The notes below the pieces were generated by a model. That model was not told the origin of the DNA. It made no database searches and saw only the letters and a program-made list of their open reading frames with translations. Shown in pieces: positions 8,725 through 17,452 of a DNA stretch of 64,000 nt. The translations under genes were made by a program, and so were the position numbers. The stretch comes from Octopus vulgaris (taxonomy: Eukaryota). The stretch is from contig OX597826.1 of NCBI GenBank assembly GCA_951406725.2, positions 31,806,001-31,870,000 of the forward strand, in the 5' to 3' direction. Position 1 is the stretch's first letter; every line of letters begins with the position of its first letter.

Positions 8725-8855
8725 CTGTGAGAATAAACAAATTAAAATAGATGCAATTAAATGGTTTATGTTAAAATATAAGATACTGAAATTAAACTTC
8801 AAGTGTTTTACAGTAATTAATTGATTTACAGCAATTAGTTGATTGGGTTACTCAC

Positions 8856-9229
8856 CTCACTTACAATTGTAGAAAAATCTTCTGTCAGAAATTTCCGTCC
8901 GTAAGAACACTGTAGTTTAGATGAATTACTTGGTGGTGTTGTATAATATGTCCCAGTGAAGCTATTGTTATATACAGAACATTGACTGTCGCCGTCCGGT
9001 TGAAGCATTTGTAAATATTCATTCTCTGTAAGATTCGCAGGAATTAACGAAGCATTAAAGTTTGGTGGGTAGCATAAGAAGGGAACATTTGCACTGATAA
9101 AAGTTAAATTCATTGCTGTCATTATAGTCACAGTGCCTATGATAATAATATAAGTGTACAACCAGCGCTGGTAGGGTCCAAATGTGCCACATTGTTCGAT
9201 AAGCTTTGTAATATCTTTATCAGATGAAG
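8856..9229 (-). CDS. SLC22-like gene 1 exon 2 (TM1 + large Cys/N-glycosylated extracellular loop)
   Basis: TTTCAG acceptor, GAG|GTGAGT donor, 374 nt. Encodes CGTFGPYQ...STIVSE, typical of SLC22 N-termini. Confidence 0.92.
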
Positions 9230-10601
9230 CTGAAATTGGAAAAAAATTTGTATGATAAAAATTATACAATATGTGTTGTAATCTCTACAAAAGTAAATGG
9301 TATGTTTCGGATTAATAACTAATTCAAATATCAAAATGAAAATGTTCAGTTGAAAGACTGGTCTGACATGTAAAACTCTTCAGGTGATTAGCTCTCATTC
9401 TGTATGCTATTTATGGAACTACCTTGTGTCAGGTAGAATGTGAATGTGTCAAGTAACCACGTGAAAATGTAACTTAAGAAATTGTTGTATTTAGGAATGG
9501 TCATTTTGCCAGTTTAGCCAATAAATAATATATAAACGTAATTTACGAAAGAAATCTATATATATTAAAAATGAACTTCAACCTGGCTTCCTTGCAATGT
9601 TTCACAGCCAAACTGGCACATAATGGGAAAATACTTTCAAAGTATAGGGCCCCTGAAATGTGAATACAAACAGTATAAAGTAAGTTTCACGTAAATCAGA
9701 CCAGTTGTTATTGAGATATTCATGGTTTGGGGGTATAAATACCCAAAACGGTGCATAATAGGAAAATACTCCGAAAATAACTTAACCCTGAAAGGGAAGA
9801 AACTCTAACCTTTCCATTAGACACATTATGGGGGACAAAATATTTTAAAGTGAAAATGACTTTAAAAATATGACAAATATATCGTAAAATACCCTTCGTA
9901 ATCTCTGTGTGAAATATTTTTCCATAGGTTTCTTTCGAGTGCATTCAACGTATCTCACCTCCAATGATTTAGCTGCAATTTCTAACATAACCTGCTACCA
10001 CGTAACAGTTATTTGCAATAAAGGACACGAAACACCTGTTACGTTGTCGCATCGCGTGCAAGAAATAGCACCATGGTAAAGGTAGAAGAGATTTACTGAA
10101 GTCATATACGTGTTTTACTCCAGTTTGAGGCTTCTTATTTACCAATATCAAGAATTAAGAATTATACGTAATAAATCTTGTGAATGCCTCGCAAAGGATA
10201 ATGTTAAGATATAACATTCAAATTGGGAATCAAATTATCATCCAGCTATTGAATTTTAAATTCATTTTTATTTTGTTACTAAATGAAGAAAATCACAAAG
10301 AATGAAAGTATAAATCCACCAGAAGAAAGCTAGACACTACATTTCGTAGCTTAATATACTGAGGGACAGGCATGGGATAAGAAGTTTGTTTCCCAACAGT
10401 ATGGTTCCAGATTTAGTGCCACTGCGTGTCTACTATAGCCTCGGACCGACCAAAGCATTGGGAGTGGATTTGGTAGTCGGTAAGACCGTCGTATACATAT
10501 ATTGTATGTATGTATGTATGTATGTATGTATGTATGTATGTATGTATGTATGTATGTATGTATGTATGTATGTACATACGTATGTATGCATGTGTGTATG
10601 T

Positions 10602-14320: not shown

Positions 14321-14388
<68 letters not shown>

Positions 14389-14444
14389 AAAAAATGAAGT
14401 TCGAAAATGCTGCTATATTATACAATTTTTAATTTTTATATATA

Positions 14445-14490
14445 CATTATAACATGTTTCAGTTCCTGAAATGAACCTTATCAAAAAAAG
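14445..14490 (-). ncRNA. minimal hammerhead-like motif (U3-A8 variant) in the PLE 3' repeat
   Basis: TTGATAA-GGTTC-atttcag-GAACT-GAAAC-AT-GTT; stem I weak. Confidence 0.55.
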
Positions 14491-14622
14491 TTATATATAA
14501 AAAAAGACAGCTCATGCCGTCAAACACAAGAAATTCATTTATAATACACAACGGAGTCAGACATCTTAGAGTTCATGTATAGTTGATACATAGTTTGAAG
14601 TAAGTTCATTCATGCTATATGT

Positions 14623-15348
14623 TCAAAGTGTTCGATACGTTTCTCTAATGGTTTGGCTTTTGTGTACCTTAGGGATACCATAGAACAAACTCGATTTGCA
14701 TTTGAAGTTAGTGATGTATTCATACTCCTTGTTCGTGAGTCCTTCTTGGTATGTGTTGATTAATGTCCTAAGGTTATGCATTATTTTTTGCTGGTTATAC
14801 TGTTGGGCCCTTTCATAATACTTTTCATCTCTTAATAGGGATAGCACTAAATTTTTATAATCGTTTGTATTCATTATTACTATCGTGTTGCCCTTATCTG
14901 CCTCCTTAATTGTTATTGTTTTGTCTTCTCTTAGTTTGATGAGGTCGTTCCATTCTCTTTTGTTGAAGTTAGGGCTGTGTTTTTGTTTCTTGATGAATTG
15001 AAACGGGAAATTAGTTATGTAGTCACAATAGCGGTCTAAGGCTTTATTATTTCCCTTGGTGGGGGTGTAATTGCTCTTGTTTCTAGCTATTGAGTCCTCC
15101 TCTATTTGTTTGTCTTGAAATGCCTCGGTGAGTCTTAGTTTTCTGCAAAATTCCGAAATATCATCTTTCATTTCATAGTAATTAGAACGTTGTGGGGTGG
15201 GTGTAAATTTGAGTCCTTTGGAGAGTATGTTTATTTCGTTAGGTGTAAGTTCTTTGTTTGAGAGATTGATTATCTTAATTACCTGAGGTTTCTTTTGTTT
15301 GTCCTTTGCCATCGTGTGTCCCTGTTCCTGTGTGTAAGGTCTAAAAAA
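14623..15348 (-). CDS. PLE reverse transcriptase ORF, N-terminal part only
   Basis: Motifs above; truncated by the terminal-repeat copy at 14636 before the catalytic DD motif. Confidence 0.8.
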   Translation of the reverse strand, partial: FFRPYTQEQGHTMAKDKQKKPQVIKIINLSNKELTPNEINILSKGLKFTPTPQRSNYYEMKDDISEFCRKLRLTEAFQDKQIEEDSIARNKSNYTPTKGNNKALDRYCDYITNFPFQFIKKQKHSPNFNKREWNDLIKLREDKTITIKEADKGNTIVIMNTNDYKNLVLSLLRDEKYYERAQQYNQQKIMHNLRTLINTYQEGLTNKEYEYITNFKCKSSLFYGIPKVHKSQTIRETYRTL

Positions 15349-16678
15349 TGGTTGGTGTAGTTATGTTCAAAGCTATTATTTATCTGTCTCATGTTGTTAT
15401 AATTGTCAGAGTGAGTTTGTGGTGCTCTGTTCTGGAGTCTGTTGTTGAACCTAGTGTTCCGTCTTAGTTCATCAGGTATATTGTGTTGGTAGTTGTTTCC
15501 TCCGTAGTGCATTTGTTGTTTGTTATGGTTGTATGGTTGGTTCCTGGGGTGGATGTTTGGTAGTAGCGTTTTGGTTTGGTTATGTGGGTTGTATTTTATA
15601 GTATTGTATGTTGTGGCTCTTAGGTTCGTGGAATGGTGTGGTGGGACCCTATAAGTGTTTTGGGGTTGGTGTAGGTAGTGTGGGGTGCGTTTTAAATGCA
15701 TTTTTCTGGTGTAGAGTGTGTTTGGATTTCTTGGTGGTTGTTCTGCTCTGTTGGTATGTCTATTTTCGAACTGGTGTGGTGGGCCTCTGTAGGTGTTTTG
15801 GGGTTGGTGTAGGTAGTGTGGGGTGTGTTTTAGGTGTACTTTTCTGGTGTAGAGTGTGGTAGGATTTCTTGGTGGTTGTTCCGTTCTGTTGGTATTTGGT
15901 TTTGATTTACTTAATTTTATGAAGGGGTTGTTGGATATGTGTTCATTTTTGAAGTTGGTTTCATAATCTAGAAACCAGATGGCGCTCTTTTCCCATCGTT
16001 GGAGGGACTTAAGTTCCTCTTTTTCACATTCTTCATTCCATAGTGCTGGTAATGTTTCAGTATTGATGTCGTCTATTAGTTTGATGACTTCTTCGTTGAT
16101 TTCCTCGTCTATGGTTTTTACTTTTTCTTCATTCGTTTTAGCTCTCAGCTTAAGTAGTTCTATTTTCATCTTCATTTTTTCTAATGACATTTTTTCTCTA
16201 AGTTTTCTTTGTTCTTCTGGTTCTTCCGAGATGGGCTTGATTTGTAATTTACGGGGTATGACTAGGAGTGTTGAGTCTAGCCATTTTTGGTAAATCTCTG
16301 CTTTATTCTGATTTTGTATCATTTTCCAAAAAGCAAATTTTCTGTTTCGCTGTAGTGTTCTCCATTGGGGCGGACTTGGTTCTTTATTTGTAATGTTGAA
16401 GTTGCTCGGTTCTTCTCATGTGTTCCTTCTTTTTGTTGCTCTTGTTTCGTAAAGTTTGTGAAGAATGTCGTCATTGTATCGCATAGATTTTCAACTTTCT
16501 CGAATATTTCGGAGGGTGTTTTATTCGATTCGGTTTCCTCGTTAGTTTGTGTAGAATGTCGAGGTGTTAAGTTGAGTTTGTTTAACACTGCTGTTAGGTT
16601 TGAATTTATGCTTTTCAATTCTTTCAGTATCTCTTCATTTATTGAGGAGATGTCATTGGTGTCTTTTTTAGCAGGCAT
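15279..16678 (-). CDS. PLE ORF1-like protein (coiled-coil, then N/H/P-rich region), split in two frames near 16320-16420
   Basis: 119-aa and 347-aa ORFs overlapping at ATGA; E/K-rich helical segment; two 46-aa tandem repeats. Confidence 0.6.
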
Positions 16679-16804
16679 TTTCGGGAGCTCGTACGTGATA
16701 TGATATTTATAATAGGATTAGCTCGTATACGAGTAGGTATATATTTGTAAAAAATGAAGTTCGAAAATGCTGCTATATTATACAATTTTTAATTTTTATA
16801 TATA

Positions 16805-16850
16805 CATTATAACATGTTTCAGTTCCTGAAATGAACCTTATCAAAAAAAG
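16805..16850 (-). ncRNA. minimal hammerhead-like motif (U3-A8 variant) in the PLE 5' repeat
   Basis: Identical to the 14445-14490 copy. Confidence 0.55.
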
Positions 16851-17452
16851 TTATATATAAAAAAAGACAGCTCATGCCGTCAAACACAAGAAATTCATTT
16901 ATAATACACAACGGAGTCAGACATCTTAGAGTTCATGTATAGTTGATATATAGTTTGAAGTAAGTTCATTCATGCTATATGTTCAAAGTGTTCGATGCAG
17001 TGGCCCACGGTGGCGATACGTATTCAATACAAAAAACAGATCAAAGTGGTGGAAAGCAGTCAATACAGAAGATTGATGTTTCCGAAAGAGCGAGGAATTC
17101 ATTTTTACCTTAAGCAATTGTGATGACCCATGGTGGGTGTTAGCTGGGTGGTTCTAGTGAGTTTTGTGAAGTGCTCGGTTTTATAATGCCTGTTAGGTGG
17201 TCAATCTAGCGTAGCGTGACGTCATCAACGTTTTGACCAATCGTTTCGTTAGGTGGCTTTAGTCAAGCAGAACGGGACGTCATCATCATTTTGACCAATC
17301 GCTGCATTATAACTGCCTCTTGTTTGTTTCCTGTTTTGACCAGTCGCTTCGTTAGTCAAGCAGAACGGGACGTCATCCAGATTCTGCCCAATCACGACTT
17401 ATAGCTACATTAGATCTGCCTCCTGTCTGTACTTGTTAGGTGACTAGTCAAG

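Follow-up and report, generated by a model that had tools for sequence, protein, structure and literature searches.

How does a reverse transcriptase (RT) come to be expressed when its reading frame opens inside the end of an upstream ORF and lies in the -1 frame relative to it? We met this arrangement in a Penelope-like element (PLE), a member of the sister group of telomerase RT, on the minus strand of a 64,000-nt stretch of the Octopus vulgaris genome (GCA_951406725.2, contig OX597826.1, positions 31,806,001 to 31,870,000; hereafter, the window). The initial annotation had proposed that programmed -1 frameshifting at a U_UUU_UUA heptamer produces an ORF1-RT fusion. In what follows, family A is the window's own family, and families B, C and D are sister families; sister families were recovered by an ORF1 search at about 64, 61 and 53% identity. 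The features of the element, in window positions, are:

14322..14377, and again from about 17453, no strand assigned: (TA)n microsatellite at the insertion end.
14378..14636, minus strand: downstream pseudo-LTR of 259 nt, matching 16738-16996 and truncating the RT at 14637.
14637..15360, minus strand: 5' part of the RT frame, with an IINLS motif at 15273 and DKG near 14898; it ends before the RT core.
15279..15363, minus strand: ORF1/RT overlap, bounded by the stop closing the -1 frame and by the ORF1 stop.
15310..15312, minus strand: RT-frame ATG, overlapping an ORF1 Trp at codon 11 after UUA; not conserved.
15342..15348, minus strand: putative slippery heptamer U_UUU_UUA, read as Phe-Leu in ORF1 and as Phe-Phe-Arg in the -1 frame.
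15279..16678, minus strand: ORF1, 466 aa in intact copies and broken near 16366 in the window.
16688..16734, minus strand: short inverted repeat directly before the ORF1 ATG, in families A, B and C.
16738..17450, minus strand: upstream pseudo-LTR region, duplicating the 3' UTR of the element; TGACGTC boxes recur in it, and a TATA-like site lies near 17186.
16810..16845, with a second at 14450-14485, minus strand: hammerhead-like motif with a degenerate core, recognized by eye in families A, B and C.
17104..17131, minus strand: upstream ATG and AG/GT donor-like site after the TATA-like box, in family A and not found in B or C.

The geometry of the junction is as initially described. Re-deriving the register, we found that ORF1 reads AAC CAT TTT TTA GAC on the minus strand, which places an X_XXY_YYZ heptamer in frame; a TAA at 15363-15361 closes the -1 frame four codons ahead of the heptamer; past it the frame stays open, for 245 aa in the window copy (to 14623), while ORF1 stops at 15281-15279, 20 codons past UUA. 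Across the 2-kb body of the element in the window, the sense strand has no other T6A. Given His-Phe-Leu, the codon usage of the element yields T_TTT_TTA with p of about 0.015, and none of 12 other x-Phe-Leu tripeptides of the elements uses it, which argues that the heptamer is more than chance.

As assembled, the window copy is defective: ORF1 loses its frame near 16366, and the RT is cut at 14637; because three of four short-read runs carry one more base near 16366, the loss of the ORF1 frame there may be an assembly or private lesion. In intact copies the RT frame is 778 aa and comprises the RT, a CX4CX2C (Zn) linker and GIY-YIG. Among the 20 long copies closest to the window, nine hold the 778-aa -1 frame, six hold a whole 466-aa ORF1 and three hold both. 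The RT is of the PLE type, with N-terminal motifs and DKG, and its RVT_1 match (E 1e-6, 28.9 bits) falls slightly below the 29.6 cut-off; GIY-YIG (PF01541) scores above cut-off, is C-terminal and has a Cys pair between GIY and YIG, and a CX2-5CxxC-type linker motif was found in 88 of 89 long RT homologs. Pseudo-LTRs formed by partial tandem copies are likewise as expected of a PLE. At G000:C9:10674953-10684309 and C9:55714285-55723598, family-B copies are arrayed head to tail, with a repeat unit of about 4.4 kb.

As judged from sequence features set out in the available part of PMC8557442, the element is an endonuclease-bearing, Neptune/Nematis-like (EN+) PLE. It has two ORFs where canonical EN+ PLEs have one, its endonuclease is C-terminal rather than N-terminal as in Naiad/Chlamys, and it has neither the missing endonuclease nor the telomere association of Athena/Terminons. 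The initial annotation was right in calling it a two-ORF PLE; it had noted that an upstream coiled-coil ORF is known from Athena-type elements, but this element is not Athena-like: GIY-YIG is present and copies are spread across many large contigs. In an RT tree of 36 rows, all of them unnamed loci (L157, from which no frame was recovered, was left out), nine ORF1-bearing elements are separated from the other 27 by a branch with SH-aLRT 98.

The structure model of ORF1, built from 8 sequences with a mean pLDDT of 56, predicts helices at residues about 8-246 followed by a low-complexity, disordered tail of Asn, Pro, Gln and Arg. ORF1 had no Pfam family match and no family match in Atlas (best 0.76); a PDB fold search with this model returned nothing at E below 0.001, a metagenome scan with the ORF1 alignment and a viral scan gave no matches, and a Pfam search of the window's broken frames gave nothing useful. 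Inside the low-complexity tail, the window carries a 138-bp duplication (90%) at 15634-15895. The inverted repeat before the ORF1 ATG is kept in three families (also in L083 and L088) despite widely differing UTRs. The hammerhead core consensus is CUGANGA; the hammerhead-like core of families A, B and C departs from it, and Rfam returned no match to the motif. Elsewhere in the window, a minus-strand reading frame at 8835-9284 resembles an exon of a host gene, which by its motif we take to be a solute-carrier (organic cation transporter-like) exon.

The junction is conserved across copies and families in the genome. A T7 run in other copies, giving one continuous ORF, had been named as the result that would overturn the frameshift proposal; the copies of families A and B carry T6. 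A variable-gap pattern found T6A in 64 of 69 family-A copies (T5 in two, T7 in one, substitutions in two), and the first 100 listed of 131 family-B copies held T6 in 98 and T7 in two. The initial annotation had also called for an alignment of copies. Of 20 sister loci picked solely for ORF1 similarity (52-65%), 18 include the junction, and each of these preserves the 12-mer around the heptamer together with the -1 offset. Different codons encode 42-50% of the residues that are identical between families A, B and C. An H-F-L-D/E pattern allowing any codon gave 506 matches, versus 47 in the control; when the first 100 listed were inspected by eye, 87 were element junctions, with the heptamer intact in 85, 12 were judged random and one was without junction support. 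Two single old copies read C_UUU_UUA or U_UUU_CUA.

The two sides of the site also differ in the -1 frame. Among 12 family representatives, some of which came from patterns that partly demanded the motif (those used to find families F-M), a stop interrupts this frame in the 12 codons preceding the site in 10 and in the 12 codons following it in one, a degraded copy, which argues that the RT frame is maintained from the heptamer onward. A high-copy repeat (L121-L126; G000:C1:2931195-2931286) with U_UUU_UUA_GGG and a hairpin was dropped for having no PLE RT or ORF1 match, and is probably the antisense strand of another element; loci L106, L130 and L132-L134 were left out.

Conservation extends well beyond this genome. 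A profile search recovered 851 ORF1 clusters at 50% identity; the best 150 of the ORF1 matches are at most 553 aa long and include no ORF1-RT fusion protein, and a longer-length search also returned none, which is weak evidence. We analyzed the 85 ORF1 homologs that are 300 aa or longer, setting aside another 67 below that length; median pairwise identity is 30%. Phe-Leu occurs within the last 60 aa of 69 of them (shuffle mean 7.4, maximum 16), compared with five in the preceding window, and Phe-Phe in 4/85. The residue before Phe-Leu is Lys, Glu, Gln, Met or Trp in 0/69 proteins against a background of 18%, as expected if the preceding codon must end in U; we read this absence as the signature of a required U.

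Nucleotide sequences from other samples point the same way. We collected 81 outside DNA loci, 53 of them with enough upstream sequence, and in all six that carry both ORF1 and RT a U6 run lies in register (five UUA, one UUG), whereas an in-register U_UUU_UUA is present in 0/47 related outside loci without ORF1. Some PLE RT-GIY-YIG sequences (L137-L142; P0167, P0199, P0204, P0236 and P0244) lie on short contigs filed under bacterial MAGs or symbionts, likely as host-animal contamination.

We propose that -1 ribosomal frameshifting on U_UUU_UUA is the best reading of the junction, with a probability of about 0.88. The initial proposal of a two-ORF PLE that makes an ORF1-RT fusion in this way is supported by the conserved heptamer and offset and by an ATG that is not conserved. 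A fraction of ribosomes would slip back one base on the heptamer, by tandem tRNA slippage as at the HIV-1 site, and continue into a predicted fusion of ORF1, RT and GIY-YIG (about 1,220 aa); the majority would terminate 10-40 codons further on, yielding free ORF1 protein and a protein ratio like that of gag to gag-pol, with ORF1 perhaps acting as an oligomeric RNP scaffold. As at canonical -1 sites, the in-register X_XXY_YYZ heptamer is conserved beyond coding need, and the -1 ORF is open from the heptamer without a conserved start of its own.

A further canonical feature, a stable stem-loop or pseudoknot 5-9 nt downstream, was not found. The initial annotation saw no strong stimulatory hairpin, and folds of 45, 70 and 100 nt in a family-A copy (L033) bear this out at -2.4, -3.2 and -4.6 kcal/mol (z -0.3 to +1.5). 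No downstream pairing is shared among 13 genome representatives (z above -2.3 in all), and the best downstream stems are mostly within the shuffle range; with no stimulatory structure, the efficiency of frameshifting could be low. The exception is L149 (about 914-938), where a downstream hairpin has z -2.8 and ORF1 stops one codon after UUA. This locus, the most divergent two-ORF element and the one with the strongest downstream stem, is possibly a structure-stimulated variant.

The alternative that survives best, although improbable, is that the RT is started separately, through reinitiation or internal initiation at an ATG or near-cognate codon overlapping ORF1 codon 11, in a form of stop/start coupling. 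The initial annotation offered the ATG at 15312 as an alternative start, and it is indeed present in the RT frame of family A and in 4/12 representatives; other representatives have ATA, GTG or TTG there, and as a start it is not conserved and is absent in most families. Many elements place the ORF1 stop at codon 11 after UUA (families B, C, D and F), as such coupling would lead one to expect, yet an overlapping ATG occurs in 0/5 elements that stop there. Similarly, although protein data show a Met 5-14 residues before an IINLS-like motif in 34/120 RT homologs, an ATG precedes that motif in 0/6 of the outside ORF1-bearing loci, and in the young, high-copy families B and C the first Met is at residue 60, past the conserved N-terminal motif. 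The -1 frame is, moreover, stop-free from the heptamer to codon 11 in 11/12 representatives, and a separate start leaves the fixed UUU UUA register unexplained. Because of the Met near IINLS in that fraction of RT homologs and the ATG at codon 11 in some representatives, a second route to the RT may nevertheless exist in some families.

Slippage of Pol II or of RT on T6 would instead produce U7 transcripts with one continuous ORF, and the available part of PMC5737442 reports such slippage by RT at a U6A site in HIV. T7 copies do exist (1/69 in family A, 2/100 of those listed in family B); however, U7 RNA would template new insertions, and T7 copies are as rare as T5. Short-read contigs contain no U7, and transcript slippage needs no codon register, a poor fit to the prevalence of Phe-Leu (69/85) over Phe-Phe (4/85) in ORF1 homologs. 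We regard this route as quite unlikely.

Splicing is less probable again. Here TTTTTTAG would serve as a 3' splice acceptor and the RT would be made from spliced RNA, and three observations fit: the sequence is acceptor-like, and every genome family has the AG; upstream in family A there is an ATG exon whose AG/GT donor-like site has the right phase; and near that donor two contigs depart from the element. That PLEs carry introns is stated in the Fig. 1 legend of PMC8557442. The AG nevertheless appears from sequence to be dispensable, since the residue after Phe-Leu cannot begin with G in 21/69 proteins and L137 has UUG followed by UU, without an AG. Nor is there a conserved phase-2 donor in ORF1, or one in families B and C, and contigs of six runs in two families contain no joint to the site, although contigs show presence, not absence. 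The two contigs, both from one short-read run, diverge from the element at 17104 and 17107, continue in unrelated sequence, and possibly represent the element promoter spliced to host exons or truncated genomic copies.

A single-ORF element with a homopolymer error in its assembly, or with a private deletion, is scarcely credible, even though a family-D C-run is one base short in 39/51 copies and 4/4 short-read runs carry the extra base there, because short-read contigs have T6 and no indel at the heptamer in the two families examined, the offset recurs in independent assemblies, and 69 predicted proteins end soon after Phe-Leu; we rejected it. The same contigs, from runs presumed to be RNA, do correct a real homopolymer error elsewhere, in the C-run early in the family-D RT (L097:3556). 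The assembly systematically under-calls some homopolymers, and we discarded a second frameshift in family D for this reason.

If ribosomes shift at the heptamer with no shared RNA structure, the distance to the ORF1 stop is of interest. That stop lies at least 10 codons after the Leu of Phe-Leu in 69/69 proteins and after exactly 10 in 21 of them; the 690 intervening positions contain 45 Tyr, Trp or Cys codons, each one step from a stop, and the later stop hazard is about 0.09 per codon. On a quick ORF1 tree the 10-codon floor holds in 73/73 rows, and the exact-10 stop occurs in 22/30 rows of one clade, which includes the genome's own families, versus 2/43 outside it; because exact-10 stops are clustered in this way, p-values based on independence overstate the spacing. 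With ten codons in between, UUA lies 11 codons upstream of the stop. In the available part of a disome profiling study (bioRxiv 10.1101/710491), queue peaks recur every 11 codons upstream of stops and +4 C is enriched; +4 C is found in 3/5 DNA-level elements with the stop at codon 11.

We therefore raise, tentatively and as the doubtful part of our account, a structure-free -1 frameshift in which a terminating ribosome is the roadblock and the stop is held 11 codons off or further. A ribosome queued behind the terminating one would hold UUU and UUA in its P and A sites and may slip; that the ribosome 11 codons ahead would supply the pause in place of RNA structure is the least certain step. 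Against this, family A encodes Trp at codon 11, its ORF1 ending only after 20 codons, and in L149 the stop, with its hairpin, comes one codon after UUA. The spacing could instead reflect a minimum ORF1 tail or inheritance. We make no claim of stop periodicity at 20 and 30 codons, since 0-frame stops at those distances arise from the hydrophobic codons that encode the IINLS region. If queued ribosomes do drive the shift, RT output would rise with ribosome load and slow termination.

PLEs with a frameshift and a pseudoknot are the EN-deficient Athena/Terminons. An ORF1/RT frameshift is already mentioned for some PLE type in the Fig. 1 legend of PMC8557442, where the ORF1 of one type is separated by a frameshift with a pseudoknot, the clade being unnamed in the text. 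The elements described here share with that type a coiled-coil-like ORF1 upstream of a PLE RT and a frameshift between the two; they differ in having an endonuclease, in inserting across chromosomes and in having neither a pseudoknot nor a conserved stem. Canonical EN+ PLEs are single-ORF according to the abstract of Craig et al. 2021 (PMC8557442), and the available part of PMC12602865 gives a killifish Neptune a short, non-overlapping ORF1 and mentions no frameshift. Our elements resemble Neptune/Nematis in their EN+ features and differ in that the clade has a separate helical ORF1 of 400-500 aa that overlaps the RT in -1.

The HIV-1 gag-pol site has a stable 3' stem-loop. Its heptamer is U_UUU_UUA and its direction -1 (PMC5009743, in the part available), the same as here, with a structural ORF upstream and the RT downstream; in contrast, the present clade has no conserved stem, a variable base after the heptamer, no protease and a constrained 0-frame stop distance. 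In coronaviruses a 0-frame stop five codons away lets the pseudoknot refold (Bhatt 2021, PMC8168617, in the part available), whereas this clade lacks a pseudoknot, and in 69/69 proteins the stop keeps a distance of about one ribosome length or more. Our search of the openly available literature found neither a slippery-site frameshift described in EN+ PLEs nor a queue-stimulated -1 shift, and Penelope is unmentioned in the available part of the Atkins 2016 review.

Taken at the level of sequence, the junction is a real and deeply conserved candidate for -1 frameshifting, and it defines a clade of EN+ PLEs with two ORFs. The clade is large (851 ORF1 clusters, with hundreds of copies in this genome) and would combine a gag/pol-like layout with a slippery site identical to that of HIV. 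Because its RTs would be expressed through such a layout, they are probably annotated without their real N-terminus, and the clade carries a helical protein family that is absent from Pfam. It would also provide dozens of natural -1 sites that lack RNA structure and whose stop distance is constrained, making a collision-programmed -1 slip, set off by a terminating ribosome, directly testable.
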